From positions 8,920 to 72,919 of the forward strand of contig JBBRSA010000015.1 of the NCBI GenBank assembly GCA_038245855.1: DNA of 64,000 nucleotides, written 5' to 3'. Position numbers and translations under genes: made by a program. The DNA comes from Burkholderiales bacterium (GTDB taxonomy: Bacteria > Pseudomonadota > Gammaproteobacteria > Burkholderiales > Burkholderiaceae_C). Below are positions 464-44,001 of this stretch, in pieces. Under the pieces are notes generated by a model. It was given only the letters and a program-made list of their open reading frames with translations, was not told the origin of the DNA and did not search any database. Each line of letters opens with the position of its first letter. Within the stretch, counting starts at the first letter, position 1.

Positions 464-479
464 TGTGCGCTGGCGCACA
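464..479 (+). promoter_or_regulatory. CRP-type palindrome box 1 (TGTGCGCTGGCGCACA), candidate activator site for the cheB/R-kinase operon
   Basis: Perfect TGTGC-N6-GCACA followed by GAC. 21 nt later comes TACGGT (501-506). Upstream of the ATG at 665. Confidence 0.6.
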
Positions 480-664
480 GACCGTTGCCATAGGCTGCGT
501 TACGGTCCGAGATGCCCAGCGCCCAAGGCGTCTAAAGCGACTAAGAATCCGCTGTTTTGGTGTGTGGGGCGGTGCGCGGGGGCTAGGCCCTGTCTAGGGA
601 TAAACTGGTTGTGCTCAAGTCCGGCAATGTGCCAGTCGACGGCGCCTTGCGAACGGAGAAGAGC

Positions 665-3600
665 ATGACAAGCAAAAAAAAGACCCCTATTGCGCCCATT
701 GCGCCCATTGCGACCATTGAACCCAGTGCAGCGGTTGCGCCTTTACAGCTTGGCCAGAGCCCCGTTGCCAGTTTCCCCATCGTTGGCATCGGCGCCTCCG
801 CCGGCGGCCTGGCGGCGTTTGAAGCCTTTTTTGCGGGTATGCCCGGCGATGCAGACCCCGACATGGCATTTGTGTTGGTGCAGCACCTAGCGCCCGACCA
901 CAAAAGTATTCTGACCGAGCTGATCCAGCGCTACACCCGCATGAAGGTGTTCGAGGTAGAAGACGGCATGGTGGTGCAGCCCAATTGCGCCTACATCATT
1001 CCGCCCAACCGCGACATGGCCTTTTTGAATGGCGCCCTGCACCTGCTGGAGCCTTCTGCACCGCGCGGCCAGCGCCTGCCCATCGACTTCTTGTTTCGTT
1101 CACTGGCGCAAGACCAGTGCGAGCGGGCCATTTGCATCGTGCTGTCGGGCACCGGCAGTGATGGTGCATTAGGCGTGCGGGCCATCAAGGATGCGGGCGG
1201 CATGGTGATGGTGCAGTCGCCTGCCACCGCTGAGTTCGATGGCATGCCCCGCAGTGCGGTGGCCACCGGCGTGGTGGATTACGAGTTACCGCCCTCTGAA
1301 ATGGCTGCCCAGCTAATGAATTACGTGGCCCACGCGTTTGGCAAACTGCCGCGCCTGACCGTGCAGGTGGCGCCGCAAAATGGCAATGCGCTCAAAAGAA
1401 TTTTTATATTGTTGCGGGCGCAAACCAGCCACGACTTTTCGCAGTACAAACCCAGCACCATTTACCGCCGTATTGAGCGGCGCATGGCGGTGAACCAGAT
1501 TGAGACGGTAGACGGCTACGTCAAGTTTTTGCAGCAATCGTCCCAAGAGGTGGAGGCGCTGTTTCGCGACCTGCTGATTGGGGTGACCAATTTCTTTCGT
1601 GACCCCGAGGTGTTCCGAACCCTGGAAGATCAGGTTATTCCCAAGCTCTTTGACAACAAGCCCGCAGGCAGTGTGGTGCGGGTATGGTCCACCGGCTGCT
1701 CTACGGGGGAAGAGGCCTATTCCATCGCTATTCTTCTGCAAGAGCGCATGGAAGCCCTCAAACAGCGCTACACCGTGCAGGTGTTTGCCACCGACATCGA
1801 CAGCCGGGCCATTGCCACGGCCCGGCTGGGGTTGTACCCGGCGGGTATTGCGGCCGACATTACGCCGCAACGGCTGGCGCGCTTTTTCACACCCGAGTCC
1901 GACGGCAGTGGCTACCGCATTCACAAGTCGATTCGCGACATGCTGGTGTTCTCTGAGCAAGACGTGCTCAAAGACCCGCCGTTCTCTAAGCTCGATCTGG
2001 TGAGTTGCCGAAACCTTTTGATCTACCTGGACGGGAATTTACAAAAGCGCTTGATCCCCCTGTTTCACTACGCGCTCAATCCCAATGGCATGCTGTTCTT
2101 GGGTAGCTCGGAAGGCGTGGGCGACTTTCATGATTTGTTCCATACGCTGGACCGCAAAGCCAAGCTATTCCAACGCAAGCCCGATTTTCACGGCATGCAG
2201 CGTGCGGTGCCCAGCCGCTTTTTGCCGGCCCCGGGCGCGGTCGATGTGGTGCCCACCGCAGGTGCCGCCAAGGCCGCAGCCCCTGCCAAGCTGCCGCTGC
2301 GCGATCTGACCGAACAGGCGCTCTTGAACGCGCTGGCGCCGCCCAGCGCGCTGGTGAACCGGGCGGGGGACATTCTTTATGTGTATGGCCGCACGGGCAT
2401 GTACCTGGAGCCGGCCTCGGGCGAGTCGGGTGTGAACAATATTCTGAAAATGGCGCGCGAAGGCTTGCGCCAAGACCTGACCATTGCCTTGCGCAAAGCC
2501 GTTAGCACCCATGAGACGGTGCGCGCCATGGGTCTGAGCATCAAAACCAATGGTCACTTCACCACCACGCACCTCAGCGTTTCGCCGGTTTCGATGGTTG
2601 CACCGGGTGCGACGGGCATAGCGGAGGATGCCGATTCGTCTCTCTACCTGGTGATGCTGCAAGCTGCGCCGGAACAAGGCCACGGCGTGACCCCGTTGCA
2701 TGTGGTGCGACCGTCGGCGCCACACTCCGAATCGGAAGCCAGCGCCGACGCCGCGGCCCAGATCGCCGCACTGCGCCACGAGTTGCGGGCCAAAGACGAA
2801 TACCTGCAGACCACGCATGAAGAGCTGGAGACCTCGAACGAAGAGCTCAAGTCGTCCAACGAAGAAATGCAATCGGTCAACGAGGAGCTGCAGTCGACCA
2901 ACGAAGAGCTGGAAACCTCGAAAGAAGAACTGCAGTCGGTCAACGAAGAACTGGCCACGGTCAATAACGAGCTGCAAACCAAGGTGGCCGACTTGTCACG
3001 CTCCAACAACGACATGAACAACCTGCTGGCCGGCACCGGTGTTGCCACCGTGTTTGTGGACCCGCAGCTGCGCATTTTGCGCTTTACCCCGGCGGTCACG
3101 CAGATCATCAACCTGATTCCGGGTGACGTGGGGCGGCCGGTGGGCCACATCGTCTCGAACCTGGTGGGCTACGACCAATTGGTGCAAGACGCCCAGGCGG
3201 TGCTGAACACCTTGGCGCCCAAAGAGGTGGAACTGCAGACCAAGGCCGGCAAGTGGTACATGATGCGCATCCAGCCCTACCGCACGCTGAACAATGTGAT
3301 TGAGGGCGTGGTGCTGTCGTTTGTGGACATTAACGACATGGTCAAAATACGCACCGCGCTGCACAAGACCAACGAGGTACTGCGCCTGGCCGTGGTGGTG
3401 CGCGATGCGCATGACGCCATCACCGTGCAAGACCTGGATGGCACGATTCTGGCCTGGAACCCCGGTGCGGTGAAGCTGTATGGCTGGTCAGAGGCCGAGG
3501 CACTGGCCATGAATGTGCGCAAGCGCATGCCCGCAGAACAGCATGCGCAAGCCAAGGCGCTGGTGCAGCAGCTCAGCCGGGGTGAAACTGTGGCACCCTA

Positions 3601-3730
3601 CACCGCGCAGCGGCTAAACAAGGCCGGCAATGCGTTGTCGGTACACATCACCGCAACCGGCTTGATTGACCACGCCGGCCAGGTGTATGCCATTGCCACC
3701 ACTGAGCACGTGCAGGATAGTCCGCAATGA
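665..3730 (+). CDS. CheB methylesterase / CheR methyltransferase fusion protein with heptad coiled coil and C-terminal PAS domains
   Basis: ORF 611-3730; ATG 665 has GGAG 6 nt upstream. Contains a CheB-like IVGIGASAGG motif, a CheR SAM-methyltransferase region, seven EELxSxN heptads and PAS-like C-terminal modules. Confidence 0.9.
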   Translation: MTSKKKTPIAPIAPIATIEPSAAVAPLQLGQSPVASFPIVGIGASAGGLAAFEAFFAGMPGDADPDMAFVLVQHLAPDHKSILTELIQRYTRMKVFEVEDGMVVQPNCAYIIPPNRDMAFLNGALHLLEPSAPRGQRLPIDFLFRSLAQDQCERAICIVLSGTGSDGALGVRAIKDAGGMVMVQSPATAEFDGMPRSAVATGVVDYELPPSEMAAQLMNYVAHAFGKLPRLTVQVAPQNGNALKRIFILLRAQTSHDFSQYKPSTIYRRIERRMAVNQIETVDGYVKFLQQSSQEVEALFRDLLIGVTNFFRDPEVFRTLEDQVIPKLFDNKPAGSVVRVWSTGCSTGEEAYSIAILLQERMEALKQRYTVQVFATDIDSRAIATARLGLYPAGIAADITPQRLARFFTPESDGSGYRIHKSIRDMLVFSEQDVLKDPPFSKLDLVSCRNLLIYLDGNLQKRLIPLFHYALNPNGMLFLGSSEGVGDFHDLFHTLDRKAKLFQRKPDFHGMQRAVPSRFLPAPGAVDVVPTAGAAKAAAPAKLPLRDLTEQALLNALAPPSALVNRAGDILYVYGRTGMYLEPASGESGVNNILKMAREGLRQDLTIALRKAVSTHETVRAMGLSIKTNGHFTTTHLSVSPVSMVAPGATGIAEDADSSLYLVMLQAAPEQGHGVTPLHVVRPSAPHSESEASADAAAQIAALRHELRAKDEYLQTTHEELETSNEELKSSNEEMQSVNEELQSTNEELETSKEELQSVNEELATVNNELQTKVADLSRSNNDMNNLLAGTGVATVFVDPQLRILRFTPAVTQIINLIPGDVGRPVGHIVSNLVGYDQLVQDAQAVLNTLAPKEVELQTKAGKWYMMRIQPYRTLNNVIEGVVLSFVDINDMVKIRTALHKTNEVLRLAVVVRDAHDAITVQDLDGTILAWNPGAVKLYGWSEAEALAMNVRKRMPAEQHAQAKALVQQLSRGETVAPYTAQRLNKAGNALSVHITATGLIDHAGQVYAIATTEHVQDSPQ

Positions 3731-5544
3731 GCCAACCCATGCAACCAGAGGCCCCCCTCATGTCAAACACAAACTCCGGCTTTGGGCCACTACTGCGCCG
3801 CCGGGCCGATGCCATTGCCGCGGCAACGGCCACCGATGCGTTTGAGGAAATTGTGAGCTTGGCGCCCAATGAAATACGGGCCACCTTGCACGAACTGCGG
3901 GTGCACCAGATCGAGCTGGGCATGCAAAACGAAGAGCTGCGCCGCGCGCAGGTGCAACTGGACGCCTCGCGGGCCCTCTATTTCGATCTGTACGACCTAG
4001 CGCCAGTGGGCTATTGCACCCTGAGCAAAGAGGGTGTGATTTTACATGCCAACTTGACCGCGGGCACCCTGCTGGGCCAGGCCCGCTCGCAGTTGATCGG
4101 CAAACCCATCTGCCGCTTTATCCTGAAAGCAGACCAAGATGTGTACTACCTGCACCGCAAAATGCTCTTGGAACACGGCGACTTGCAATCGTGTGAGTTG
4201 CACATGGTGCGAGGCGACGGACTTACGTTTTGGGCGAACCTGGTGTCCTCTGGGGTGGAAGACCCCGATGGCGTGGCGGTGCACCGTGTCGTTTTGAGCG
4301 ACATTTCAGACCGCAAACGCATGGAGCGGTCACTGCAAGAAAAAAACGCCGCATTGGAAGATGCGACGCAGGTGGCAGAAAAAGCCAACCGGGCCAAGTC
4401 TGAATTTCTGTCGAGCATGAGCCATGAGTTTCGCACCCCGCTCAACGCCATCTTGGGGTTTGCCCAATTGATGGAGGCCGGTGCACCGGCGCCCACGCCG
4501 GGTCAAAAATCCAGAATCGACCAAATTTTGAAGGCGGGTTGGTACCTGCTGGAGTTGGTGAACGAGATTTTGGACCTGGCGGTGATTGAGTCGGGCAGCG
4601 TGTCATTGACCATGGAGCCCTTGCTGCTGTGCGATGTGCTAACCGACTGCGAGGCCATGATCGAGCCCTTGGCGCAGACCAATGGCATTGCCGTCTCTTA
4701 CTGCCCGGTCGACCCGACTTGTTTTGTACACGCCGACCATTTGCACCTGAAGCAGGTGCTGATCAATTTGATCAGCAACGCGATCAAATACAACCGCGCC
4801 GGCGGCACCGTGACCGTGACGTGCGGCCTGGGCCCGAGTGGGCGCATACGCATTAGTGTGCGCGACACCGGCCACGGTTTGTCGGCCGATAAATTGAACC
4901 ATTTGTTTCAACCGTTTAACCGCTTGGGGCAAGAGGCCGGGGCCGTGAAAGGCACCGGCATTGGCCTGGTGGTGAGCAAACGTTTGGTGGAGCTGATGGG
5001 CGGCGAAATCGGGGTGCACAGCACCGTGGGCGAAGGCACGGTTTTTTGGTTTGAGTTGGACATGACGCATGCCCCCTCACCCGTGGCAGAGAGTGGGGCT
5101 TGCGAGCTGCACGGTGGCTCTAGGCCAGCGCCCCTGCACGGCGAACCGCTACAACATACCGTTTTGTATGTAGAAGACAACCTAGAGAACCTGCAACTGG
5201 TGGAGGAACTCATTGAGCGGCGACCCGAGCTGCATTTACTCACCGCCCGTGACGCGGTCAGCGGCATTGCACTGGCGCGCATCCACCAGCCCACGCTGAT
5301 TCTGATGGACATTCAGCTGCCGGGCATGAGTGGAATCGAGGCGCTCAAGGTGTTGCGTGAAGACCCGGTCACCCAGCACATACCCGTGCTGGCACTGACT
5401 GCCAATGCCATGGAATCGGGAATTGAACACGGCCTAGAGGCGGGGTTTTTTCGCTACATCACCAAGCCGATCAAGATCACCGCTTTTATGGATGTGTTGG
5501 ACGAGGCGCTGGTATTTGCGCACTCCAGCTGGCCGCCACTTTAG
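3727..5544 (+). CDS. PAS-containing hybrid sensor histidine kinase/response regulator (paralogue 1)
   Basis: ATGA overlap with the upstream gene. H-box SSMSHEFRTPLNAILGF, HATPase motifs (DTGHGL, GTGIGL) and a C-terminal REC domain (LMDIQLPGMSG). Confidence 0.9.
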   Translation: MSQPMQPEAPLMSNTNSGFGPLLRRRADAIAAATATDAFEEIVSLAPNEIRATLHELRVHQIELGMQNEELRRAQVQLDASRALYFDLYDLAPVGYCTLSKEGVILHANLTAGTLLGQARSQLIGKPICRFILKADQDVYYLHRKMLLEHGDLQSCELHMVRGDGLTFWANLVSSGVEDPDGVAVHRVVLSDISDRKRMERSLQEKNAALEDATQVAEKANRAKSEFLSSMSHEFRTPLNAILGFAQLMEAGAPAPTPGQKSRIDQILKAGWYLLELVNEILDLAVIESGSVSLTMEPLLLCDVLTDCEAMIEPLAQTNGIAVSYCPVDPTCFVHADHLHLKQVLINLISNAIKYNRAGGTVTVTCGLGPSGRIRISVRDTGHGLSADKLNHLFQPFNRLGQEAGAVKGTGIGLVVSKRLVELMGGEIGVHSTVGEGTVFWFELDMTHAPSPVAESGACELHGGSRPAPLHGEPLQHTVLYVEDNLENLQLVEELIERRPELHLLTARDAVSGIALARIHQPTLILMDIQLPGMSGIEALKVLREDPVTQHIPVLALTANAMESGIEHGLEAGFFRYITKPIKITAFMDVLDEALVFAHSSWPPL

Positions 5545-5891
5545 GCGGCTTCAGCCACCTCACTAGCGGCCACTTCTAGGCAGGCTTTCACGCAGGCCTG
5601 ACAGGCTTTGGCGCATTGCTGGCAATGGTCTGCGGTGTGTTTGGCGCACTCGTCGGCACACGACTGGCAAATGCTGGCGCACAGCTTGCAAATGGCGGCG
5701 GCGTGTTCACTGTCGCGTGCCATGGCCGCCGCAGCGGTGGTGCACATCGCAGCGCAGTCCATGTCCCATGCGATGCACAGGGCCATCATCTTCACGTCGG
5801 GCTCCTTCAGGCAGGCGGTTGAGCAATAGTTGCAGGCCATGGCGCAGTCGTTGCACGCATCAATACAGGTTTGAAAGTTGGAGTGAGTCAT
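5541..5891 (-). CDS. four-helix-bundle copper-binding protein (DUF326, Csp-like, Cys-rich)
   Basis: 116 aa with repeated CxxxC/CxxC motifs (CIDACNDCAMACNYC..., CKLCASICQSCADEC, CQQCAKACQAC). Confidence 0.85.
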   Translation of the reverse strand: MTHSNFQTCIDACNDCAMACNYCSTACLKEPDVKMMALCIAWDMDCAAMCTTAAAAMARDSEHAAAICKLCASICQSCADECAKHTADHCQQCAKACQACVKACLEVAASEVAEAA

Positions 5892-5944: not shown

Positions 5945-5960
5945 CGTGCGGTAGTGAACA
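5945..5960. promoter_or_regulatory. CRP-type palindrome box 2, degenerate (CGTGCGGTAGTGAACA), possibly bidirectional
   Basis: 8/10 arm matches, followed by GAC. AAAAAT at 5982-5987 on the + side (FMN reductase); AACAAT (rc of 5918-5923) on the - side (copper protein). Both are 21 nt away. Confidence 0.4.
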
Positions 5961-6010: not shown

Positions 6011-6661
6011 ATGACCAAACCCGTTACCAAACCGCTCACCATTCTGGGCATATCCGGTAGCTTGCGCGCCCACTCCTACAACCACGCGGCCCTGGTGGCA
6101 GCACAGGGGCTTTTGCCCCGGGGTGTGACGCTTAAAATTTTTGACCTGGCGGGTATTCCCTTGTTCAATCAGGACGAAGAAAACACCCCGTCGCCCCGCG
6201 TGGTGGCGTTCAAGAAGAGCATTCGCGCGGCGGACGCCATTCTCATTTCTACGCCAGAGTACAACTACTCGGTGCCAGGTGTCTTGAAGAACGCCATGGA
6301 CTGCGCCTCGCGCCCCTACGGCGACAGCGCGTGGGCGGGTAAACCCATTGCCATCATGGGGGCCTCGGTCAGCACGTTTGGATCGGCCCGCGCGCAGTAC
6401 CACCTGCGCCAGACCTTGGTCGCGTTGGATATGTTGGTGCTGAACCAGCCCGAAGTCATGATTGCCAACGCTGGCGATGTGGAAACGACGTTCAATGCCC
6501 ACGGGAAGTTGATCAATGCCCTCAGCCAAAACATGATTCGCCAGCTCTTGGTGGACCTGGCCGCGTGGACGCGCAAGCTCAAGCCAAAGCAGCCACAAAA
6601 GACGATTCAGACTAAGCAGCCCCATGCGGCGCGGGTGTCCACACTGGCGCATTCGGCATGA
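6011..6661 (+). CDS. NADPH-dependent FMN reductase family protein
   Basis: ATG 6011 with GGAGAG 5 nt upstream. LTILGISGSLRAHSYN... and STPEYNYSVPGVLKNAMD are typical of the family. Confidence 0.85.
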   Translation: MTKPVTKPLTILGISGSLRAHSYNHAALVAAQGLLPRGVTLKIFDLAGIPLFNQDEENTPSPRVVAFKKSIRAADAILISTPEYNYSVPGVLKNAMDCASRPYGDSAWAGKPIAIMGASVSTFGSARAQYHLRQTLVALDMLVLNQPEVMIANAGDVETTFNAHGKLINALSQNMIRQLLVDLAAWTRKLKPKQPQKTIQTKQPHAARVSTLAHSA

Positions 6662-7272
6662 TGGCCAAGGACGGTGCGCCCGGCCACAGCGAGAGCAAGG
6701 TTGCAGTGCGAAAGTGCCCCATTGTGTGTGTTGGTGGCTCGGCCGGTGGGCTAGATGCCTATATTCGGCTGCTGCAAAACCTGCCGGCGGACATGGGCGT
6801 GGCCATTGTCATCGTGAACCACATCACCATCATGCCAACCCAGTTGCATGAGGTGTTGCCGCGCTTTAGCGCCATGCCGGTTGAGCTCATCACGGAGCGC
6901 TTGCGCATTGAACCCAACCACGTTTTCATCATTCCTTCCAACCGCGATTTGCATGTCGATGGAGACGTTTTTTTGCTCAAACCCATCTCCAAACAACGTG
7001 GCTGGCCGGATGTAATCACGGTTTTTCTGCGCTCGCTCACCGAGTTTTGGGACGGCAAACTGATTGCGGTGATTGTGTCCGGCTACGACGGCGACGGTGC
7101 GGCCGCCCTGTGTGGCATCAAAGAAGTGGGCGGCATCACCATTGCACAGAAGCTGAGCACTGCCACCCAGCCCGACATGCCGGAGAGCGCCATTGACAGC
7201 GGGTGCATCGACTATATTTTGTCCCCCGAGGACATTGCCAAAGAAATCGTGCGGATTGCGCGCGAGAACTGA
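6658..7272 (+). CDS. stand-alone CheB-type methylesterase domain protein (no REC domain)
   Basis: ATGA overlap with the FMN reductase gene. IVCVGGSAGGLDAY..., VNH and SGYDGDGA match the CheB Ser/His/Asp catalytic-domain pattern. Confidence 0.8.
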   Translation: MMAKDGAPGHSESKVAVRKCPIVCVGGSAGGLDAYIRLLQNLPADMGVAIVIVNHITIMPTQLHEVLPRFSAMPVELITERLRIEPNHVFIIPSNRDLHVDGDVFLLKPISKQRGWPDVITVFLRSLTEFWDGKLIAVIVSGYDGDGAAALCGIKEVGGITIAQKLSTATQPDMPESAIDSGCIDYILSPEDIAKEIVRIAREN

Positions 7273-10262: not shown

Positions 10263-10282
10263 GTGGAACTCCTGGTGGGTAA

Positions 10283-33794: not shown

Positions 33795-33810
33795 TGTATG
33801 CCAGCGTACA
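33795..33810. promoter_or_regulatory. CRP-type palindrome box 8 (TGTATGCCAGCGTACA), bidirectional candidate
   Basis: + side: GAC, then TAACCT at 33832-33837 (BON operon). - side: GAC, then TAATCT (rc of 33768-33773) (Lys/Ala-rich protein). Both are 21 nt away. Confidence 0.55.
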
Positions 33811-33866
33811 GACGGCCCCTTGATCTGCAAATAACCTTGGGGCTTACATCAACAAGGAATACATCC

Positions 33867-34178: not shown

Positions 34179-34218
34179 TACGTTATTTATTTTCCATTTT
34201 TTTAAAAGAGGTATCCCC

Positions 34219-34437
34219 ATGAAAATCAACAATCAATCGGCAATCCGTGCTTTGGCTGTAGTCGCTGTGCTGAGTCTCGGCGCCTGTGCGGGCATGTCCA
34301 CGCAAGACAAAAACACCGCCATTGGTGCAGGTGTAGGGGCCATTGGTGGCTCTGTCATTTCGGGCGGTAGCGCCGTCGGAACTGTCGGTGGGGCGGCCGT
34401 GGGCGGCTACATCGGCCACGAAGTCAACAAGAAATAA
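34219..34437 (+). CDS. glycine-zipper lipoprotein (OsmB / 17-kDa antigen-like)
   Basis: Lipobox LGAC, then GAGVGAIGGSVISGGSAVGTVGGAAVGGYIG. Confidence 0.85.
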   Translation: MKINNQSAIRALAVVAVLSLGACAGMSTQDKNTAIGAGVGAIGGSVISGGSAVGTVGGAAVGGYIGHEVNKK

Positions 34438-34465
34438 TTCCCCGCTTAGAAAAGGAAAATGCACT

Positions 34466-35173
34466 ATGCAATCGACCACCAAACTGCTACTCACCGCCAT
34501 TGCGGCCGCCACACTCATGCCGGTCGCGGCCTTGGCCCAAGCTGATTTTCCTAACCAAGGCTATTTGGTCGATGGCTCCGAAAGTGTTGTCAAGTCACCC
34601 GTGAGCGGCTGCTGGCATACCGGTGAGTGGAGCCCTGCACGCGCCACGATGGAGTGTGATCCATCGCTGGTGCGAGTGGCAGCTGTTACGCCTGCGCCCC
34701 GAGCCGCCGACCCTGCTGCTGTGGTGCCACCCGCAGCAGCGGTGGCCGTGGTGCCAGTGCCGGTAACACCTACGACGAAAAAGATCAGTTTTTCAGGCGA
34801 CGCGTTGTTTGCGTTTGACAAGTCCGACTTGAAACCCGCAGGTGTTGCCATGCTCGACACCTTGGTGGGCCAACTCAAGGGCGCTAGGTACGACTCTATC
34901 GTGGTCACGGGTCACACCGACCGCCTGGGCAGCAGCAAATACAACCAAAAGCTCTCTGAGCGCCGCGCCAACACCGTCAAGAACTACCTGGTGGCCCAAA
35001 GTGTGACGGCCGACCGTATTGATGCCCAAGGCAAAGGTGAAACCCAGCCAGAGACCAAAGCGGGCGACTGTAAAGGCGGTAAAAGCGCCAAACTCATCGC
35101 CTGCCTGCAGCCTGATCGCCGCGTAGATGTGGAAGTGACGGGCTCCAAAACGACGATGTCCAACGCGCAGTAG
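34466..35173 (+). CDS. OmpA-family (peptidoglycan-associated) protein
   Basis: AAAGGA RBS, signal peptide, TGHTDRLGSSKYNQKLSERRA. The ORF-track start at 34343 is an extension. Confidence 0.9.
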   Translation: MQSTTKLLLTAIAAATLMPVAALAQADFPNQGYLVDGSESVVKSPVSGCWHTGEWSPARATMECDPSLVRVAAVTPAPRAADPAAVVPPAAAVAVVPVPVTPTTKKISFSGDALFAFDKSDLKPAGVAMLDTLVGQLKGARYDSIVVTGHTDRLGSSKYNQKLSERRANTVKNYLVAQSVTADRIDAQGKGETQPETKAGDCKGGKSAKLIACLQPDRRVDVEVTGSKTTMSNAQ

Positions 35174-35193
35174 TTGGTATGCGGCCCCTTTTG

Positions 35194-35209
35194 TGTGCGC
35201 TAGCGCACA
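35194..35209 (+). promoter_or_regulatory. CRP-type palindrome box 9 (TGTGCGCTAGCGCACA) upstream of the kinase-RR-Crp operon
   Basis: Perfect 16-bp palindrome. TTATGG at 35231-35236 (21 nt). 68 nt upstream of ATG 35277. Confidence 0.6.
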
Positions 35210-35276
35210 TACGGGGTGAGAGCCTAGCTGTTATGGTCCAGACTCCCTCTGTGCCACGCAACCCCGGTCGAATTTC

Positions 35277-37976: not shown

Positions 37977-38797
37977 AAATCGACCAAACCGATATTTTGA
38001 ACGCCCGGATTTTGATCGTTGACGACCAGCAGGCCAATGTGAGTCTGCTGGAAACCATGCTGCTGGATGTGGGCTACACCTGCATCAGCGCCACGACGAA
38101 TCCGACTGAAGTCTGCGCGTTGCACCGCGCAAACAGTTATGACCTGATTTTGCTGGACCTGCAAATGCCGGTTATGGATGGTTTTGCGGTCATGGAAGCG
38201 CTTAACGCACAGAATACGATGGGTTATGTTCCGGTGCTGGTGATAACGGCCCAGCCAGCACACAAGCTGCGCGCCTTGCAGGCTGGGGCCAAAGACTTCA
38301 TCAGCAAACCCTTTGACCTGGTAGAGGCCAAAACCCGTATCCACAACATGCTAGAAGTGCGCCTGCTCTACAAAAAGCTGGACGACTACAGCAAAGTGTT
38401 GGAGCAGACGGTGCTGGAGCGCACCGCCGAATTGCGCGAGAGCGAAGCCCGCTACCGAAGCCTGACCGAGCTGGCCTCAGACTGGTATTGGGAGCAAGAC
38501 GATACGGGTAGTTTTACCAAGGTGTCCGGCCCTGTTTTGGAGATGCTTGGTATTCAGGTTGGCACCAGTTCAGAGCCGCCCGCCGATGCCTTGGTTGCGA
38601 ACTGGAATGAGGCTGAACGCGAGACGCTGAAATCCAAGATATTTGCGCGGCAACCGTTTCTGGACTTTATTTTTAGCCGGGCCAATGCCGATGGCTCCAA
38701 GCAGCGGTTCAAGGTGAGTGGAGAGCCCATGTTCAACCAGGCCAGCCGATTTATTGGCTATCGGGGCATTGGTGTTGAACTGGCCGACAACGAATAG
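37973..38797 (+). CDS. response regulator with REC, coiled coil and PAS domains
   Basis: ATGA overlap with the kinase gene. ILIVDDQ...LLDLQMPVMDG...KPF, then WYWEQD...PAS-like C-terminus. Confidence 0.9.
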   Translation: MKIDQTDILNARILIVDDQQANVSLLETMLLDVGYTCISATTNPTEVCALHRANSYDLILLDLQMPVMDGFAVMEALNAQNTMGYVPVLVITAQPAHKLRALQAGAKDFISKPFDLVEAKTRIHNMLEVRLLYKKLDDYSKVLEQTVLERTAELRESEARYRSLTELASDWYWEQDDTGSFTKVSGPVLEMLGIQVGTSSEPPADALVANWNEAERETLKSKIFARQPFLDFIFSRANADGSKQRFKVSGEPMFNQASRFIGYRGIGVELADNE

Positions 38798-38820
38798 TGC
38801 TCTGCACCACACCGCCCGCT

Positions 38821-39558
38821 ATGACACTGCTTCACCATCCTAATCAAAACCATTTGCTGGCCGCCTTGCCTGCGGCTGAGTTTGAGCGTCTGGCGCCGAA
38901 CCTGCAACTGGTGCCCATGCCGCTGGGTGAGATCCTTTACGAGTCCAGCGCCAAGCAAAGCCACGCCTATTTCCCCACCACCGCCATTGTTTCACTGCAT
39001 TACGTTACCGAGACTGGCGCTTCGTCAGAGATCGCTGGTGTTGGCTTAGAGGGTTTGGTGGGCGTGTCATTGTTCATGGGCGGCAACAGCACTCCCAGTG
39101 CCGCTGTGGTGCAGACAGCAGGCCATGCCTACCGTTTAGAGCGCAGTGTGCTCAAGCAGGAATTCGAACAGAGCGGCGTACTGCAAAGTCTGCTGCTGCG
39201 TTATACCCAAGCGCTAATGACGCAGATGTCCCAGATCGCCGTGTGTAACCGCCACCATTCGGTAGAGCAGCAATTGTGCCGCTGGTTATTGGGCACGCTA
39301 GACCGCATTCCGAGCGGCGAATTGGTGATGACGCAAGAGCTGGTAGCCAGCATGCTGGGTGTACGCCGCGAGGGCGTCACCGAGGCGGCTGGCAAGCTGC
39401 AGCAGGCGGGCTACATCCGCTACCGGCGTGGGCATATCTCGGTGCTGGACCGCACCGGACTGGAGTCGCGCGCGTGCGAGTGTTATGGCGTGGTCAAGAA
39501 AGAATTTGACCGCTTGTTGTCTGACGGGTTACATCGCCAGACCGAAGCCCCTGCCTGA
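38821..39558 (+). CDS. Crp/Fnr-family transcriptional regulator (cNMP-binding-like domain plus C-terminal HTH)
   Basis: LLAALPAAEFERLAPNLQLVPMPLGEILYE... beta-roll region. HTH is QELVASMLGVRREGVTEAAGKLQQAGYI. Alternative GTG start at 38797 overlaps the RR stop. Confidence 0.85.
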   Translation: MTLLHHPNQNHLLAALPAAEFERLAPNLQLVPMPLGEILYESSAKQSHAYFPTTAIVSLHYVTETGASSEIAGVGLEGLVGVSLFMGGNSTPSAAVVQTAGHAYRLERSVLKQEFEQSGVLQSLLLRYTQALMTQMSQIAVCNRHHSVEQQLCRWLLGTLDRIPSGELVMTQELVASMLGVRREGVTEAAGKLQQAGYIRYRRGHISVLDRTGLESRACECYGVVKKEFDRLLSDGLHRQTEAPA

Positions 39559-39592
39559 CGTTTTCGATTATTTGGTGATTGCGCGCACGCAA

Positions 39593-39608
39593 GGTGCGCT
39601 AGCGCACA
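39593..39608 (+). promoter_or_regulatory. CRP-type palindrome box 10 (GGTGCGCTAGCGCACA)
   Basis: 9/10 arm matches, followed by GAC. TATTCT at 39630-39635 (21 nt). Upstream of BON gene 39703. Confidence 0.6.
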
Positions 39609-39702
39609 GACGCTTTCCCCGCGCCTTCGTATTCTTGACCCGTCGCAGCAGGTGGCCCTAGGCCACCGGGTGAATATCCCTTATTTAATTGGAGAACTTA
39701 CG

Positions 39703-40017
39703 ATGAAAAAGAGTTTTAAAAGCATTTCTGCCACCATGGCAGCCATTGCCCTGATCACGCTGGCAGGTTGCGCTGCAACCCCTACCCACGAGGCAACAGG
39801 CCAGTATGTGGACGATTCCGTCATCACCACAAAAACTAAGGCGGCCATCTTCAATGATGCGACGCTGAAGTCGGCCGAAATCAATGTGGAAACTTTCAAG
39901 GGCAAGGTTCAATTGAGCGGCTTTGTGCGTAGCCAGGCCGATGTCAATCGGGCGGTTGAAATCGCCCGTGGCATTGACGGTGTGAAGTCCGTTAAGAACG
40001 ATATGAGCTTGAAATAA
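39703..40017 (+). CDS. BON-domain lipoprotein (single BON)
   Basis: GGAG RBS, lipobox LAGC, VETFKGKVQLSGFV. Confidence 0.9.
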   Translation: MKKSFKSISATMAAIALITLAGCAATPTHEATGQYVDDSVITTKTKAAIFNDATLKSAEINVETFKGKVQLSGFVRSQADVNRAVEIARGIDGVKSVKNDMSLK

Positions 40018-40046
40018 ATCGTGTTTATGCAAGCGTGGTCGGCTTG

Positions 40047-40062
40047 TGTGCGCAAGCGCACA
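40047..40062 (+). promoter_or_regulatory. CRP-type palindrome box 11 (TGTGCGCAAGCGCACA)
   Basis: Perfect arms, followed by GAC. TAATCT at 40084-40089 (21 nt). Upstream of 40178. Confidence 0.6.
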
Positions 40063-40177
40063 GACGTTCAACTTGTAAATCGTTAATCTACCCACTGCAC
40101 TCGGCGATGCGCGCCCAAAACGCGCATCGACCCAGCCGCATTTCTTCCATTTCACCCCCCATTAAGGACTACTGACT

Positions 40178-40462
40178 ATGTCAAAACGCGACGAATACAC
40201 TGCAAAAATGAAAACCCAGCTTGACGACCTGAACAAGCAAATGGACGACTTGTCTGCCAAGGCAAAAGACGCCAAAGCCGATGCCCGCGAAGCTTACAAC
40301 GCCGAAATGGCCAAGCTGCGCCACCAGTCCAAATTGGCAGTGGCCAAGTATGAAGAGATCAAAGCCGCTGGCGAAGACAAATGGGACAGCATGGTCGCCG
40401 AAATGGACAACATCAAAGATGCGTTTGTCCATTCGTTCAAATACTTCAAGTCGCAGATTTAA
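40178..40462 (+). CDS. small coiled-coil protein (94 aa), stress-island associated
   Basis: AAGGA RBS. Lys/Asp/Ala-rich helical sequence MSKRDEYTAKMKTQLDDLNKQMDDL... Confidence 0.75.
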   Translation: MSKRDEYTAKMKTQLDDLNKQMDDLSAKAKDAKADAREAYNAEMAKLRHQSKLAVAKYEEIKAAGEDKWDSMVAEMDNIKDAFVHSFKYFKSQI

Positions 40463-40510
40463 GGTTCGCGTGGAATGCCTGGGTTTAAACCCAGGCACCA
40501 CGAACCATAT

Positions 40511-40546
40511 AAAAAGGGGGCGTTCCGCAAGGAATGCCCCCTTTTT
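40511..40546. terminator. bidirectional Rho-independent terminator between convergent genes
   Basis: AAAAA-GGGGGCGTTCC-gcaa-GGAATGCCCCC-TTTTT. A second long hairpin lies just upstream at 40463-40506 (GGTTCGCGTGG...CCACGAACC with inner CCTGGGTTTAAACCCAGG). Confidence 0.8.
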
Positions 40547-40576
40547 ATATGGCAACCACGCAAGGGGCTGCGGCTA

Positions 40577-41389
40577 TCAGTCGCGTGGATCGCCGTTGCG
40601 GTTGACCAAAATGGTGCGCCCCGGCTCTTTGCTCATCTGAACCCGGTGCGTTTGGCCGCGGTACTTGTAAGTCACATCCCAATAGGTTGGTGTGGCGCTG
40701 GGTGTTTTTTCACAGCGTCGTACGTCGTGCTCGGTCGAAGGCGCGGTCGTGTTTCGGCCCACATTGGAGCCAATGTATCCACCCGCCGCCGCACCGCCTA
40801 CCGTGGCAATGTCTTTGCCAACACCGCCGCCGACCTGGTGGCCCAGGATGCCGCCAATCAACGCGCCAGCAATGGCGCCACCGACGTTGGGCCCGCCTCG
40901 GGTCGTGGCACCCGCTACCTGTTGCCGCTCGACCCAGCAACGTTCGTTGGGCGGGCCAACCACGGCACGCACGGACGTGACGGGTGCTTGCTGAAGACGT
41001 TCGTTGGGCCGCCTGCGGTATTCATAGGCACTCACATTGGTGGGCGCGTAAACATCGTCATCCATGTTGGCATGGGCATCGGCAGGGTGTACCGATGAAA
41101 TGCGGTTGTTCATGCCCATGGATTTCAGGGTGTCGTAATTGCCGGGGCGTAACACCACGCAGCGGCCCGCGTAACGCGCGTCCTCACACACCTCCCAGCG
41201 GCCCCGGTCCACGATCACGGAGGATGCGCGGTCATTGAACCCATGGCGGGCGAAATTTTCAACCGGTTTGTCGGTCAAAAAGGTGCGGCCTAAAAAGGAT
41301 TCGTTTTCATAAAAGGTGATTTGCGCACTGGCCACTGTGGCTAGGCCCAGCAGGGCAAGAGCCACGGTGCTTTTGAGGTGCAATTTCAT
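40577..41389 (-). CDS. secreted beta/gamma-crystallin-like domain protein with glycine-zipper segment
   Basis: GGAG RBS at ATG 41389 and a signal peptide. ITFYENESFLGRTF...NDRASSVIV...GRWEVCED...RISSV crystallin-type repeats, then GGAIAGALIGGILGHQVGGGVG. Confidence 0.7.
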   Translation of the reverse strand: MKLHLKSTVALALLGLATVASAQITFYENESFLGRTFLTDKPVENFARHGFNDRASSVIVDRGRWEVCEDARYAGRCVVLRPGNYDTLKSMGMNNRISSVHPADAHANMDDDVYAPTNVSAYEYRRRPNERLQQAPVTSVRAVVGPPNERCWVERQQVAGATTRGGPNVGGAIAGALIGGILGHQVGGGVGKDIATVGGAAAGGYIGSNVGRNTTAPSTEHDVRRCEKTPSATPTYWDVTYKYRGQTHRVQMSKEPGRTILVNRNGDPRD

Positions 41390-41406
41390 AGAGGACTCCG
41401 GTGCCG

Positions 41407-41556
41407 CTAAAGGGGGGAGCGTCCGCTGATGACGCGCAGCAAGACCATCACGATAGCGACCACCAGCAAGATGTGAATGAAACCACCCAGCGTGTAAGAG
41501 GTGACCAGTCCGAGTAGCCACAAGACGAGTAAGACGACGGCGATGGTGTAAAGCAT
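41407..41556 (-). CDS. lmo0937-family small membrane protein (49 aa)
   Basis: AAGGAA RBS. MLYTIAVVLLVLWLLGLVTSYTLGGFIHILLVVAIVMVLLRVISGRSPL. Confidence 0.75.
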   Translation of the reverse strand: MLYTIAVVLLVLWLLGLVTSYTLGGFIHILLVVAIVMVLLRVISGRSPL

Positions 41557-41609
41557 GGTGTGTTCCTTTAGAGTGTGCATGTATGGTGGTTCAAATGGCG
41601 GGAAAGCTC

Positions 41610-41625
41610 TGTTGGCTGGCGCACA
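41610..41625 (-). promoter_or_regulatory. CRP-type palindrome box 12 (rc TGTGCGCCAGCCAACA)
   Basis: 9/10 arm matches on the - strand, followed by GAG. CACCAT (rc of 41583-41588) 21 nt on. Upstream of ATG 41556. Confidence 0.5.
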
Positions 41626-41633
41626 CAAGGCAT

Positions 41634-41665
41634 AAAAAAAGACCGCTGTAGAGCGGCCTTTTTAG
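41634..41665 (-). terminator. Rho-independent terminator after csbD
   Basis: CCGCT-gtag-AGCGG hairpin flanked by A7 (plus strand) and T5. The - strand transcript ends in a U7 run. Confidence 0.6.
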
Positions 41666-41685
41666 GAGAGGGTCAGTGCAAGACG

Positions 41686-41865
41686 TTATTTCTTGATGTT
41701 TTTAACGGCTTGCTTGACGTCGCCAACATGCTCTTGAACCTTGCCTTCGGCTTGGCGCACCAGGCCCTTGGCTTGTTGCTTTTTGCTGTCGATCAGCTTT
41801 CCGGTTTCTTCTTGGATTTTTCCAGCGAGGTCTTTGGCAGCGCCTTTGATTTGGTCTTTGTTCAT
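41686..41865 (-). CDS. CsbD-family stress protein (59 aa; below the ORF-track cutoff)
   Basis: My translation is MNKDQIKGAAKDLAGKIQEETGKLIDSKKQQAKGLVRQAEGKVQEHVGDVKQAVKNIKK, the canonical CsbD pattern. Confidence 0.8.
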   Translation of the reverse strand: MNKDQIKGAAKDLAGKIQEETGKLIDSKKQQAKGLVRQAEGKVQEHVGDVKQAVKNIKK

Positions 41866-41986
41866 GGGTAATTCCTAGTAGTGAAGTTGCTTACTGATGC
41901 CCCGTTTTACCGGGACTCAGACCGTCTACCGAACAACGAAATTGTTGTGTCGATAGATTACTTTATGAAACTGCGGCACTTTGTTC

Positions 41987-42002
41987 GGTGCGCTGACCAA
42001 CA
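41987..42002 (-). promoter_or_regulatory. CRP-type palindrome box 13, degenerate (rc TGTTGGTCAGCGCACC)
   Basis: On the - strand TAAAGT (rc of 41960-41965) follows 21 nt on. About 120 nt upstream of the csbD ATG. Confidence 0.45.
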
Positions 42003-42146
42003 TAAGGGCGTTATTTCTATCTGTGCGGCCTATGTGCTCCAGCGAACGGAAATTGGGAGCGCCGCAGATTACCGTGTTACTTGCAAGTTCGCCCAACGGT
42101 GTGTTGTGGGGGCTGCATTTCTTCAGCATTTAACCCAAGGATTTTT

Positions 42147-42416
42147 ATGAAATATTCAATTGTTTTTCCGGCGCTGGTCGTTGCTATGGGACTGGTTGCC
42201 TGCGAACGTGCGGTGGTTGTTCCGGCGCCTGCGGTTGTGACGGTACCCGGTCCGGCAGGTCCAGCCGGGCCAGCAGGTGGAAATGGGGCGGTGGGTGCCA
42301 CCGGCGACACGGGGGCTACGGGTAATACCGGAGCTACGGGTGACACGGGTGCGGCGGGGCAGCGTGGAAAAACCGGTGGCGACACCGTGGTCGTTGTTCC
42401 GGCACCGACGCAGTAA
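42147..42416 (+). CDS. small lipoprotein with collagen-like Gly-X-Y repeats (89 aa)
   Basis: AAGGA RBS, lipobox LVAC, then 15 consecutive GXY triplets (GPAGPAGPAGGNGAVGATGDTGATGNTGATGDTGAAGQRGKTGGD) flanked by VVVPAP motifs. Confidence 0.65.
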   Translation: MKYSIVFPALVVAMGLVACERAVVVPAPAVVTVPGPAGPAGPAGGNGAVGATGDTGATGNTGATGDTGAAGQRGKTGGDTVVVVPAPTQ

Positions 42417-42570: not shown

Positions 42571-43476
42571 TTATTTGGCAATAACAACGCCGCTATTCGG
42601 GGTGAAGATGATTTCCACGCGGCGGTTCATCTGGCGGCCCGCTGCCGTGTCGTTGGTGGCGGCAGGGTTGCTTTCACCCATGCCCCGCGTGCTGAGCTGG
42701 CTGGCAAGCACGCCCTGGCTCATCAGCGCCGCCATGACGGTCCTGGCCCTGCGATCTGAGAGTTCGAAATTGGCGGCCTTGCTGCCGACGCTGTCGGTGT
42801 AACCCTCGATGGATGCCTGCAGGGCCGTGTTGCGTTTGAAGGCTTCTGCCAAGCGAACCATATAGCCTGCACCCGCTGGCAGCAGGCGGTCTTGGCCGCT
42901 GTCAAACAGCACATCACCCAGGGTGATCACAAAACCACGTTCGGTTTTTTTGGCGTTGAGGTCTTTTAACTCCAACTCCAGCGCATGGGCACGGGCGTCG
43001 CTGTAGTCAACACGCGCTTGGTCCTGCTTGGCTGCGGCATCGGCCTGAGCCAGTTCGTTGGTTTTGCGGGCATTGCTGCGCTCAGAGGCTGCAAGTTGCT
43101 GGTGTGCCAGATCGGCCTCTGCCGTACGCTGGGCCAGGCGCAGTTTGTCGCGTTCGGCTGAGGCATTGGCGGTGATGGCTTGGGACGCTCGGCTGGACGC
43201 GGTCTCTTGCGCAATGACGACCCGTTGTGCTGTCATGTAGGACAGGTGGTCTACCGTGGCTTTGGGTTGCCCTTTGTCCCAGGCATGTTGTGCCTGATCC
43301 AGGGCGGCGCCTGCCTGCTTCAATTCTTCGGGTGCCAGTGTTACCACTTGTGCATCGTGCTGTGCCATGTTGAAGCTGCCGCGTGCGCGGTCCAGGTCGC
43401 TATTGCGTTCGGGCACGGTACTGCAGGCTGCCAGGGCAGCGGTAACGGCAATGAGGGTTAAGAGTCGGGTGGTCAT
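42571..43476 (-). CDS. OmpA-family lipoprotein with N-terminal DUF4398-like coiled coil
   Basis: AGGA RBS at ATG 43476, lipobox LAAC, EGYTDSVGSKAANFELSDRRA. The TTG at 43497 in the ORF track is unlikely. Confidence 0.85.
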   Translation of the reverse strand: MTTRLLTLIAVTAALAACSTVPERNSDLDRARGSFNMAQHDAQVVTLAPEELKQAGAALDQAQHAWDKGQPKATVDHLSYMTAQRVVIAQETASSRASQAITANASAERDKLRLAQRTAEADLAHQQLAASERSNARKTNELAQADAAAKQDQARVDYSDARAHALELELKDLNAKKTERGFVITLGDVLFDSGQDRLLPAGAGYMVRLAEAFKRNTALQASIEGYTDSVGSKAANFELSDRRARTVMAALMSQGVLASQLSTRGMGESNPAATNDTAAGRQMNRRVEIIFTPNSGVVIAK

Positions 43477-43493
43477 GGTGTTTCCTGGTGGGT

Positions 43494-43886
43494 TCAACGG
43501 GTGGTCGGACGGTTAATTTCTTCTTTGAGCGCACGTGCGGCGTCCTGAGACTCCAGCGCCGCCTTGCGGGAGCGCTCGGCTTCGGCATGTATCAGGGTCA
43601 CTTGGGCATCGACTTGGGTTTCATCGGCCAATTGCTGCGCAAGCACATAGTTTTTGTCGACCAACGCCTTGCGGGCGCTGATGAGTTTGGCAGTGGCAAT
43701 TTGCAGTTCGTTGGCTGCATTTTCGGCGTTGCTGGTGGTGTTGGCTTGCTGGACCGAGGCTTCGGCAACTGCCATCTTTTCGCTGAGCTCTAACGGCGCT
43801 GCGGCGAACGCTGGCAAGGCCAGCAGCAGTGTCAGCACAAGGGCGGGAGCAGACAGTCGGCTGTGAATACACAGTGGTTTTTTCAT
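43494..43886 (-). CDS. DUF4398-domain secreted protein
   Basis: Signal peptide, then a helical region ...ELQIATAKLISARKALVDKNYVLAQQLADE... typical of DUF4398. Confidence 0.75.
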   Translation of the reverse strand: MKKPLCIHSRLSAPALVLTLLLALPAFAAAPLELSEKMAVAEASVQQANTTSNAENAANELQIATAKLISARKALVDKNYVLAQQLADETQVDAQVTLIHAEAERSRKAALESQDAARALKEEINRPTTR

Positions 43887-43985
43887 GAATTTTCCTTGAG
43901 GTTCCGTGTGGCTACGGCAGGTGAAAGGGTCGGCCTGATAGGGTTTCGGGCTGTGGGCAGTGTCGGCTGCCTAATCTGTTTGGTC

Positions 43986-44001
43986 TGTGGGCTAGCGCAC
44001 C
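43986..44001. promoter_or_regulatory. CRP-type palindrome box 14 (rc GGTGCGCTAGCCCACA)
   Basis: GAC on both sides. - side: GACACT (rc of 43959-43964), 21 nt, for the DUF4398 operon. + side: ATTGGT at 44023-44028, 21 nt. Confidence 0.5.

Follow-up and report, generated by a model that had tools for sequence, protein, structure and literature searches.

The window described here is a 64,000-nucleotide stretch from a Burkholderiales bacterium (GenBank assembly GCA_038245855.1, contig JBBRSA010000015.1, positions 8,920 to 72,919), the left 44 kb of which carries a repeated intergenic palindrome with the arms TGTGC and GCACA. With a probability of roughly 0.7, this palindrome is the operator of a CRP/FNR-family protein encoded among the sites (38821–39558), which would act as a class II activator of about 20 stress and envelope transcription units. 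The reading is based on what was observed: the sites and their geometry, how far they are conserved, that they are linked to the regulator gene, and that the recognition helix co-varies with the operator.

A preliminary description of this DNA listed 14 copies of TGTGC-N6-GCACA, five with perfect arms. A pattern scan of the window returned exactly those five perfect copies, at 464, 13695, 26735, 35194 and 40047. Dinucleotide-preserving shuffles contained a mean of 0.42 perfect copies and a maximum of 3, and none of 100 shuffles reached five; the excess is real, and the earlier expectation of 0.06 copies was too low for this GC-rich DNA. The bare 5-N6-5 pattern at two mismatches was not enriched in the window (67 matches versus 75 expected). 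The nine degenerate sites are therefore indefensible on their arms alone, and a matrix that includes the centre and the flanks is required. Such a weight matrix separated all 14 listed sites (18–30 bits) from the background (at most 10 bits) and added two sites, at 42033 (18.8 bits) and 32194 (13.8 bits). The consensus core of the 14 sites is TGTGCGCTAGCGCACA, with flanks GTC and GAC, and the full motif is a 20–22 bp palindrome, T-n-TGTGCGCTAGCGCACA-n-A. G2, T3, A14 and C15 are invariant in the 14 sites. The centre, earlier written as a free N6, is a conserved GCTAGC. Over the 28 half-sites, C occupies position 5 in 22, G position 6 in 26, C position 7 in 21 and T position 8 in 20, and the sites of other species exhibit the same position-5 C and conserved centre.

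A scan of one genome per species detected relatives of the regulator in at least 528 species, and the cross-species promoter profile and site counts rest on the best 80 loci, which are 68–81% identical to the window regulator. The geometry of the promoters was profiled with 187 sites from these 80 other species, which were oriented by the GA flank only before the downstream bases were counted. A TAnnnT hexamer emerged at +22 to +27 on the GA-flanked side, its A (+23) being present in 150 of 186 sites and its final T (+27) in 145 of 186, whereas the opposite orientation of the same 187 sites gave no hexamer signal. The fixed class II-like distance to a -10 hexamer noted in the window is thus reproduced in 80 other species, where the GAC side alone has it. 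Between +4 and +21 no base is informative. The A at +2 mirrors the T at -17, both being part of the operator, and the G at +1 is confined to the promoter side. Relative to the predicted -10 element, the 16-bp core spans -49 to -34 with its centre at -41.5, and the G-A-C lies at -33 to -31, where it aligns exactly with the GAC of a TTGACA placed at 17-bp spacing. Judged against the predicted -10, the sites would have the class II geometry, overlapping the -35 position with a centre near -41.5; in E. coli class II CRP promoters, TGTGA-N6-TCACA is centred at -41.5. The -35 region matches its consensus at no more than three of six positions and the first T of the -10 hexamer is present in 48% of the sites, which is consistent with promoters that need an activator.

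A model of core, GAC and -10 hexamer, trained on the 187 sites from outside the window's species, was then applied to the window. It recovered 24 oriented promoters at 17 positions, all scoring at least 19 bits, against a maximum of 17.9 bits in shuffled sequence and about 0.45 matches of at least 12 bits per shuffled window. The 17 positions comprise all 14 listed sites and three that had not been listed, namely 32194(+), 42033(+) and a weaker one at 256(-). To the right of 44001 no match reached even 12 bits, in agreement with the earlier remark that no copy was seen in intergenic DNA right of 44 kb. All 17 positions are intergenic relative to the called genes, and in each good orientation a start codon follows 17–150 nt past the predicted transcription start; the starts proposed earlier at 513, 32112, 33844, 39642 and 40096 agree with those predicted here from sequence. 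Further starts are predicted near 5994, 13661(-), 17549, 26701(-), 32243, 33761(-), 35244, 41576(-), 41953(-), 42082 and 43952(-). The claim that the hexamer lies exactly 21 nt from the palindrome in every case holds for 20 of the 24 oriented candidates, which have nAnnnT at 21 nt. The exceptions are 35194(+), where TATGGT at 22 nt fits better than the TTATGG named before, and three orientations (17500-, 35194- and 43986+) that have no usable hexamer or gene and are probably silent.

Six single sites carry GAC or a close variant on both flanks and lie between divergent genes. Five of them (5945, 15795, 26735, 33795 and 43986) have a hexamer on both sides, that of 43986(+) being unconvincing; the sixth, 17500, has a gene on the plus side only. 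Two divergent gene pairs use two sites placed 46–48 bp apart instead (32146/32194 and 41987/42033). The sites and the genes that they face are as follows.

256–271, minus strand: weak candidate site with a good left half only; GAC and TAACCT at 21 nt; 20.7 bits in the extended model, core alone weak; faces a secreted protein on the minus strand that starts at 163 and runs past the left edge of the window.
464–479, plus strand: perfect-arm operator; GAC, TACGGT; precedes a CheB-CheR-PAS gene (665–3730) and a hybrid histidine kinase (3727–5544).
5945–5960, both strands: shared operator of divergent promoters; plus side AAAAAT, towards an FMN reductase (6011–6661) and a CheB-like protein (6658–7272); minus side AACAAT, towards a DUF326 Cys-rich protein (5541–5891).
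13695–13710, minus strand: perfect-arm operator; CATGAT; precedes a Dps/ferritin-like gene (13074–13631), with GSDH, FumC and aconitase genes next on the same strand.
15795–15810, both strands: shared operator; minus side CATGAT, towards a PF10136 protein (13719–15725); plus side TACCGT, facing a GDSL-lipase open reading frame (ORF; 15751–16584) whose start is ambiguous.
17500–17515, plus strand: operator with GAC on both flanks; GATGCT; precedes a DUF3309 peptide (17590–17748), on the plus side only.
26735–26750, both strands: shared perfect-arm operator with GTC and GAC flanks; plus side GACACT, towards a double-BON protein in the frame of 26431–27459.
32146–32161, minus strand: operator; TAATCT; precedes OmpA (30973–32043), a PAS hybrid kinase (29233–30945), a REC protein (28730–29236) and a GGDEF protein (27959–28711).
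32194–32209, plus strand: added site, 48 bp from 32146 and facing the opposite way; GAC, TATCGT; 26.1 bits; precedes a short-chain dehydrogenase (32295–33044).
33795–33810, both strands: shared operator with GTC and GAC flanks; plus side TAACCT, towards a BON lipoprotein (33867–34178), a glycine-zipper lipoprotein (34219–34437) and OmpA (within 34343–35173); minus side TAATCT, towards a 193-aa secreted Cys-repeat protein (33117–33698).
35194–35209, plus strand: perfect consensus operator before the regulator's own operon; flank TAC; best -10 TATGGT at 22 nt.
39593–39608, plus strand: operator; GAC, TATTCT; precedes a BON lipoprotein (39703–40017).
40047–40062, plus strand: perfect-arm operator; GAC, TAATCT; precedes an sll1863-family stress protein (40178–40462); 35.9 bits, the best score of the window.
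41610–41625, minus strand: operator; GAG, CACCAT; precedes a DUF5670 membrane peptide (41407–41556) and a beta/gamma-crystallin and glycine-zipper protein (40577–41389).
41987–42002, minus strand: operator; GAA, TAAAGT; precedes CsbD (41686–41865).
42033–42048, plus strand: added site, 46 bp from 41987 and facing the opposite way; GAA, TACCGT; 27.0 bits; precedes a collagen-like Gly-rich lipoprotein (42147–42416).
43986–44001, minus strand: operator with GTC and GAC flanks; GACACT; precedes DUF4398 (43494–43886) and DUF4398-OmpA (42571–43497); the plus side is without a convincing hexamer or gene.

The perfect site at 35194 precedes three genes, identified by Pfam annotation, whose stops and starts overlap or abut and which therefore form one operon:

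35277–37976, plus strand: CHASE3-PAS-PAS-HisKA-HATPase-REC hybrid histidine kinase (Pfam), first gene of the operon.
37973–38797, plus strand: response regulator made up of a REC domain, a coiled coil and a PAS domain, without a DNA-binding domain; 4 bp at its start are shared with the stop of the kinase gene.
38821–39558, plus strand: CRP/FNR-family protein of 245 aa, the candidate cognate regulator; the ORF spans 38797–39558 with the likely start at the ATG at 38821; recognition helix GVRREGVTE.

The three sensor-kinase operons named in the preliminary description are thus confirmed, although it was overlooked that one of them ends in a probable cognate regulator. The next site, at 39593, begins 35 bp past the stop codon of the regulator gene, and a site followed by a BON gene also lies downstream of the regulator in three other loci (L002, L003 and L063). 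The hybrid kinase adjoins the regulator in most of the 80 loci. The REC-PAS protein is always linked to the regulator, at 58–73% identity in most other loci and 89% in the closest relative (L063), and the gene order elsewhere is either kinase-response regulator-Crp or Crp-kinase-response regulator.

The family assignment of the 245-aa protein rests first on its C-terminal PF13545 (HTH_Crp_2) match (E 4.3e-14, 52.7 bits against a cut-off of 27). The PF00027 cyclic-nucleotide-binding barrel is precomputed for nearly all homologues of the regulator, of which there are thousands, the top matches being 76–98% identical. Foldseek aligned the predicted model over its full length (~230 columns, TM ~0.6) to GlxR, M. 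tuberculosis CRP, Clr, Cmr and FNR, at 14–20% sequence identity. A PDB sequence search returned remote matches only (E about 2e-4), and NCBIfam holds no specific model for the regulator. A helix is predicted at residues 119–145, and an extra helix follows the C-terminal Cys motif. In the family alignment, C142-N-R-H-H146 at the end of the dimerisation helix is invariant, C153 is nearly so, and C219-E-C221-Y near the C-terminus is invariant. The AlphaFold model appears good enough to assign the fold class, though not to decide on any spatial clustering of C142, C153, C219 and C221.

The cAMP-binding Arg and Glu (E72 and R82-S83 of E. coli CRP) are absent: in the phmmer alignment the RTS of GlxR faces S-T-P and its Glu faces a gap. 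The family-conserved segment LFMGGxxTPSxAVVQT, which occupies the place of the cyclic-phosphate loop, likewise contains neither Arg nor Glu. None of 32 aligned family members has a Cys before residue 142, such that the N-terminal Cys cluster of FNR is absent as well. Because it lacks both the cyclic-phosphate-binding Arg and Glu and the N-terminal Cys cluster, the regulator appears to be neither a cAMP receptor nor an FNR.

The 80 loci are almost all from Betaproteobacteria, including Rhodoferax, Polaromonas, Janthinobacterium, Massilia, Collimonas, Noviherbaspirillum, Undibacterium, Sulfuriferula, Thiobacillus, Nitrosomonas, Gallionella and Roseateles. The 16-mer matrix found 189 sites in 1.23 Mb around their regulator genes versus 8 in shuffled DNA (~24-fold). 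The sites are kept before orthologous genes although the spacers diverge. Many Oxalobacteraceae-type loci have a site 100–170 bp upstream of the regulator gene, and autoregulation of the regulator therefore seems widespread. Among 150 ORFs downstream of the other-species sites, 29 encode BON proteins, about 23 have glycine-zipper matches and 11 are copies of the regulator; about 13 encode PAS-domain signalling proteins, 4 crystallins and 4 OmpA proteins.

The linkage was also approached from the opposite side, by searching metagenomes for TGTGCGCNNGCGCACAGAC alone, which yielded 120 contigs with a median length of 3.6 kb. The regulator is encoded on 22 of the 120 motif-chosen contigs, in 16 of them at 55% identity or more, and is the commonest window protein among them. 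In this sample nAnnnT occurs at offset 21 in 47% and at offset 22 in 33% (80% together), with every other offset at 6% or less. About one third of the perfect-core sites in the metagenome loci L083–L202 have nAnnnT at 22 nt. Downstream of the metagenome sites, most genes encode PAS, GGDEF or kinase proteins or FAD oxidoreductases; KaiC and ice-binding proteins occur twice each. On five metagenome contigs (L089, L109, L122, L160 and L197), two to three paralogous CRP-like genes with 38–46% identity cluster beside the orthologue, which suggests families of related regulators within one locus.

The system also occurs on mobile replicons. The R. solanacearum plasmid pRsT78 and a B. multivorans plasmid carry the regulator together with CsbD, DUF3309 and glycine-zipper genes. 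On pKLC102 of P. aeruginosa clone C (L203; NC_019202, 84800–103480), a 67%-identical regulator lies beside a GH94 'chvB' glucan synthase, with four good sites at the correct spacing. This orthologue and its four sites indicate that the regulator and part of its regulon would be horizontally mobile into Gammaproteobacteria.

Protein and operator also co-vary. Alignment with hhalign to E. coli CRP, which covered the HTH only, matched the helix GVRREGVTE to GCSRETVGR of CRP, such that R183 corresponds to R180, E184 to E181 and E188 to R185. The Arg-Glu pair of CRP and the TGTG...CACA arms are thus both kept, and Glu stands in place of CRP Arg185. In CRP, it is Glu181 that recognises the second G:C pair of TGTGA. 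In 96 loci with the R-R-E helix, position 4 of the half-site is G in 66%. In the three R-R-S loci, from two Burkholderia replicons and one Ralstonia plasmid (L081, Burkholderia cenocepacia, 69% identity; L082, R. solanacearum pRsT78; L204, B. multivorans p1), it is A or C in 87%. The R-R-S operator is GGTACG-N4-CGTACC, still followed by GAC and a CAnnnT hexamer at 21 nt. On pKLC102, the copy has diverged to the same extent (67% identity) but is R-R-E and keeps sites of the G/T type. The R-R-S loci look like a natural change of specificity, and the direction of the change in helix and operator appears to be that predicted by the CRP code. Three Duganella loci (L067, L068 and L075; E188V, GVTVAA) have no site in 20.7 kb each, the best score being 3.9; in these, either the specificity would have changed or the system would have decayed.

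Taken together, these features are those expected of a CRP/FNR-family class II activator with an operator of its own, without known effector sites and apparently tied to a two-component module. In the proposed mechanism, the regulator dimer would bind centred at -41.5, sometimes at -42.5. The site abuts a vestigial -35 element, the last two site bases plus GAC reading CAGAC versus TTGACA. The bound dimer would activate sigma-70-type RNA polymerase at promoters with only a minimal -10 (nAnnnT), as CRP and FNR do at class II promoters. A site flanked by GAC on both sides would serve two divergent promoters, as would, elsewhere, the two sites 46–48 bp apart, and the regulator would also activate the operon that encodes it. 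What sets the activity of the regulator is probably not cAMP but the CHASE3/PAS hybrid kinase and the REC-PAS response regulator that are conserved with it, and the invariant Cys and His residues could provide a further input as a redox or metal centre. The output would be about 20 transcription units, encoding periplasmic and outer-membrane stress proteins (BON/OsmY-like, OmpA-like, glycine-zipper lipoproteins, DUF4398 and crystallin) as well as small general-stress proteins (CsbD, DUF3309, DUF5670, sll1863-like and Dps), a cyclic-glucan-synthase-like enzyme and further signalling proteins. Binding by this protein, the positive sign of regulation, the inducing signal and the role in the cell are inferences from sequence.

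Several observations weigh against this reading. The PF00027 barrel of the window protein scores 25.7 bits, under the cut-off of 27.5, and its AlphaFold model, built from a shallow alignment, has a mean pLDDT of 63 and is poor in the beta-barrel and in residues 55–99. The comparison of cores across species is partly circular, as the matrix was derived from the window, the -10 part being independent of it. In the motif-anchored metagenome sample, the downstream genes are mostly signalling genes and not BON genes. The co-variation sample consists of three R-R-S and three Duganella loci that are mutually related. The role of the kinase and response regulator as the input is suggested by synteny, and the sign of regulation by geometry; a repressor operator overlapping the -35 would sit in the same place.

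Such a repressor is unlikely but is the strongest competitor. The same CRP-family protein would then cover -51 to -32 and block sigma region 4 at the -35, and stress would relieve the block. CRP/FNR-family proteins are able to repress, the operator does overlap the -35 position, and the regulator's own promoter at 35194 combines the best core with an atypical TAC flank and 22-nt spacing. Against repression, the TT of the -35 is missing from the promoters, and in many of them so is the first T of the -10, so that they look too weak to need it. Moreover, the sites are phased to the single base pair at -41.5 in 80 species and single sites serve divergent promoters symmetrically; such phasing and symmetric use are the hallmark of class II activation by CRP and FNR.

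It is quite improbable that another transcription factor, either a paralogous CRP-like protein or one of an unrelated family encoded elsewhere in the genome, binds the palindrome and that the linked gene is merely one of its targets. The CRP-like paralogues (38–46% identity) beside the orthologue on several metagenome contigs are compatible with this view, and TGTGC-N6-GCACA has been reported as the site of a LysR-type regulator (HpdR/MmsR) in Pseudomonas putida (PMC5431877), the sole literature match for the pattern. LysR sites, however, do not have the -41.5 phasing. Among the left-hand genes scanned by domain annotation there was no other DNA-binding protein, no other window gene accompanies the motif as often as the regulator gene in the motif-chosen sample, and the helix and operator co-vary at the position equivalent to CRP Glu181.

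A non-regulatory intergenic repeat of the REP or MITE kind, or the -35 element of an alternative (extracytoplasmic function, ECF-type) sigma factor, would account for many intergenic copies in one region and for an asymmetric GAC followed by an element at fixed distance, as in two-block sigma promoters, but is very improbable, as the flanks share no similarity besides GAC and the hexamer, sites are retained before orthologous genes while spacers diverge, the core is truly palindromic and serves promoters in either direction, the -10 is a sigma-70-like TAnnnT with no ECF-type boxes in the cross-species profile, and domain annotation of the window genes scanned revealed neither a sigma nor an anti-sigma gene. 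A LexA-like reading was rejected, as CTGT-N8-ACAG has the wrong spacing.

With the CRP/FNR-family activator as the preferred explanation, the genes beside the sites indicate what the regulon may do. Pfam and NCBIfam annotation of the site-adjacent ORFs identified three BON and three OmpA proteins, glycine-zipper lipoproteins, CsbD, DUF5670 (lmo0937-like), DUF3309 and DUF4398, as well as an sll1863-family protein, a Dps/ferritin-like protein, a beta/gamma-crystallin, a 2972-aa GH94 cyclic-glucan-synthase-like protein and the three kinase operons; each family of the earlier gene list was recovered. That these form one regulon with one motif family is supported by the geometry and by the recurrence of the motif in 80 other species. 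The gene content points to a general or envelope stress response of the osmotic, desiccation or stationary-phase type. Between 32000 and 42000, where the regulon is densest, the G+C content is 0.55–0.57 versus ~0.61 elsewhere, and many short secreted or hydrophilic proteins are encoded. A tRNA scan of the window found none, and neither a tRNA gene nor an integrase marks an island border at 32000–42000.

Several individual genes merit description. After the Dps gene, the same strand (7275–13631, minus) carries a glucose/sorbosone dehydrogenase-like gene, a class II fumarase of the FumC type and a 1011-aa aconitase, which may be co-transcribed from the promoter at 13695; FumC and AcnA are stress-type isoenzymes in E. 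coli. The 193-aa secreted protein at 33117–33698 (minus) contains three to four repeats of A-x-x-K-x-K-C-D-x-x-A-G-x-A-K-D-x-C and has no match in Pfam or NCBIfam. Its homologues lie within ~10 kb of the regulator gene in nine other loci, and it is thus a conserved neighbour that is preceded by a site here. A 201-aa ORF at 26922–27527 (minus), with high GC3 and a Val/Ala-rich product, is chosen by naive ORF callers; it was rejected as a gene, being a shadow of the plus-strand double-BON gene.

The right part of the window holds a TPP riboswitch (RF00059, 65.7 bits, 50635–50735, plus strand) ahead of thiC, followed by an ordinary thiamine operon without a palindrome site (50769–56571; thiC, a DAO/ThiO-like gene, thiG and a thiD-thiE fusion). 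Two more GGDEF genes (56670–57896 and 58410–59912, plus strand), one with a periplasmic solute-binding domain, also lie outside the regulon region and have no site.

To our knowledge, the control of general-stress proteins in environmental Betaproteobacteria such as Rhodoferax, Polaromonas, Janthinobacterium, Massilia, Thiobacillus and Nitrosomonas is poorly understood. The present analysis supplies a widely conserved candidate, comprising a regulator gene, an operator with base-level rules, predicted transcription starts, a core regulon and a linked sensor kinase. It is possible, and can be put forward only tentatively, that throughout the Betaproteobacteria the three-gene module acts as master switch of a response of the general-stress, osmotic, desiccation or dormancy kind, as a functional counterpart of RpoS, SigB and EcfG that relies on a class II activator and would take its input from the phosphorelay partner or a redox or metal centre rather than from a nucleotide, and that would be mobile on plasmids and integrative and conjugative elements (ICEs) such as pKLC102. 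As plasmids and ICEs of opportunistic pathogens carry the regulator, a regulon for stress tolerance may be able to spread together with the gene that controls it. The helices with Glu and TGTG versus Ser and GGTA appear to be a natural specificity-swap pair, an extension of the classic CRP recognition code; the CRP-family protein concerned seems to receive its input through a two-component module. Tractable relatives carry the system, among them Janthinobacterium, Burkholderia, Ralstonia and P. aeruginosa clone C with pKLC102, and complete genomes with the module include those of Rhodoferax sp. BP02, Janthinobacterium sp. GW458P and Undibacterium sp. Ren11W.

A literature search, the coverage of which excluded most subscription-journal papers, returned no description of the motif as this operator or of the regulator; this is consistent with the word 'undescribed' in the preliminary description and is not proof of it. 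Among known systems, the E. coli cAMP-CRP class II promoters share with the present system the CRP fold, HTH_Crp_2, the Arg-Glu pair, the TGTG...CACA arms, the centre at -41.5 and a weak -35. The operator nevertheless departs from the canonical TGTGA-N6-TCACA with its weakly conserved spacer: position 5 of the half-site is C and not A, the centre GC-TA-GC is conserved, and the palindrome extends over 20–22 bp. The protein differs by the Glu at the Arg185 position, the absence of a cAMP-binding Arg and the 14–20% identity to solved CRP-family proteins, and the system by the linked hybrid kinase and REC-PAS protein and by a regulon of stress and envelope rather than catabolic genes. Unlike FNR and Anr, the regulator has no N-terminal Cys cluster, and the operator is not TTGAT-N4-ATCAA.

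Thermus SdrP, Xanthomonas Clp and B. cenocepacia Bcam1349 are CRP-fold proteins that work independently of cAMP and govern stationary-phase, stress or envelope genes, Clp and Bcam1349 binding c-di-GMP. The regulator resembles them in having a CRP fold without a cAMP site, and GGDEF genes are among its predicted targets. The similarity is remote, a weak sequence match (E 0.0024) being obtained with PDB 2zcw, which we take to be SdrP. We know of no coupling of SdrP, Clp or Bcam1349 to a CHASE3 kinase and a REC-PAS protein, or of a C-E-C-Y motif in any of them.

The gene content overlaps strongly with the regulons of RpoS (E. coli), SigB (Bacillus) and EcfG (Alphaproteobacteria). Such regulons contain BON/OsmY, Dps, CsbD/YjbJ, OsmB or glycine-zipper-type lipoproteins and small hydrophilic or membrane peptides. 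The difference lies in the promoters, which here have an activator site at -41.5 with a sigma-70-like -10, and in the lack of a sigma gene among the cluster genes scanned. A -13C preference was not seen in the cross-species profile, where position +21 is A in 31, C in 52, G in 52 and T in 51 sites.

The closest published layout is that of the lxa locus of Burkholderia cenocepacia, a chromosomal cluster of ~50 stress genes in which one palindrome recurs at 17 intergenic positions (Sass et al. 2013, PMC3721108) and which also encodes the CRP-family regulator BCAM0287 and a two-component pair (PMC3721108). The lxa motif, two inverted 4-bp arms around a 6-bp spacer, has TGA-N6-TCA in common with the sites of Anr and FNR, and the locus is induced by low oxygen and contains universal stress proteins and metabolic genes (PMC3721108). 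The present system differs in its motif, TGTGCGC-TA-GCGCACA, in a regulator that has no Cys before residue 142 of 245, and in its gene set. Nonetheless, the two share the same plan of clustered stress genes, a repeated palindrome, and an internal CRP-family regulator accompanied by a two-component pair.

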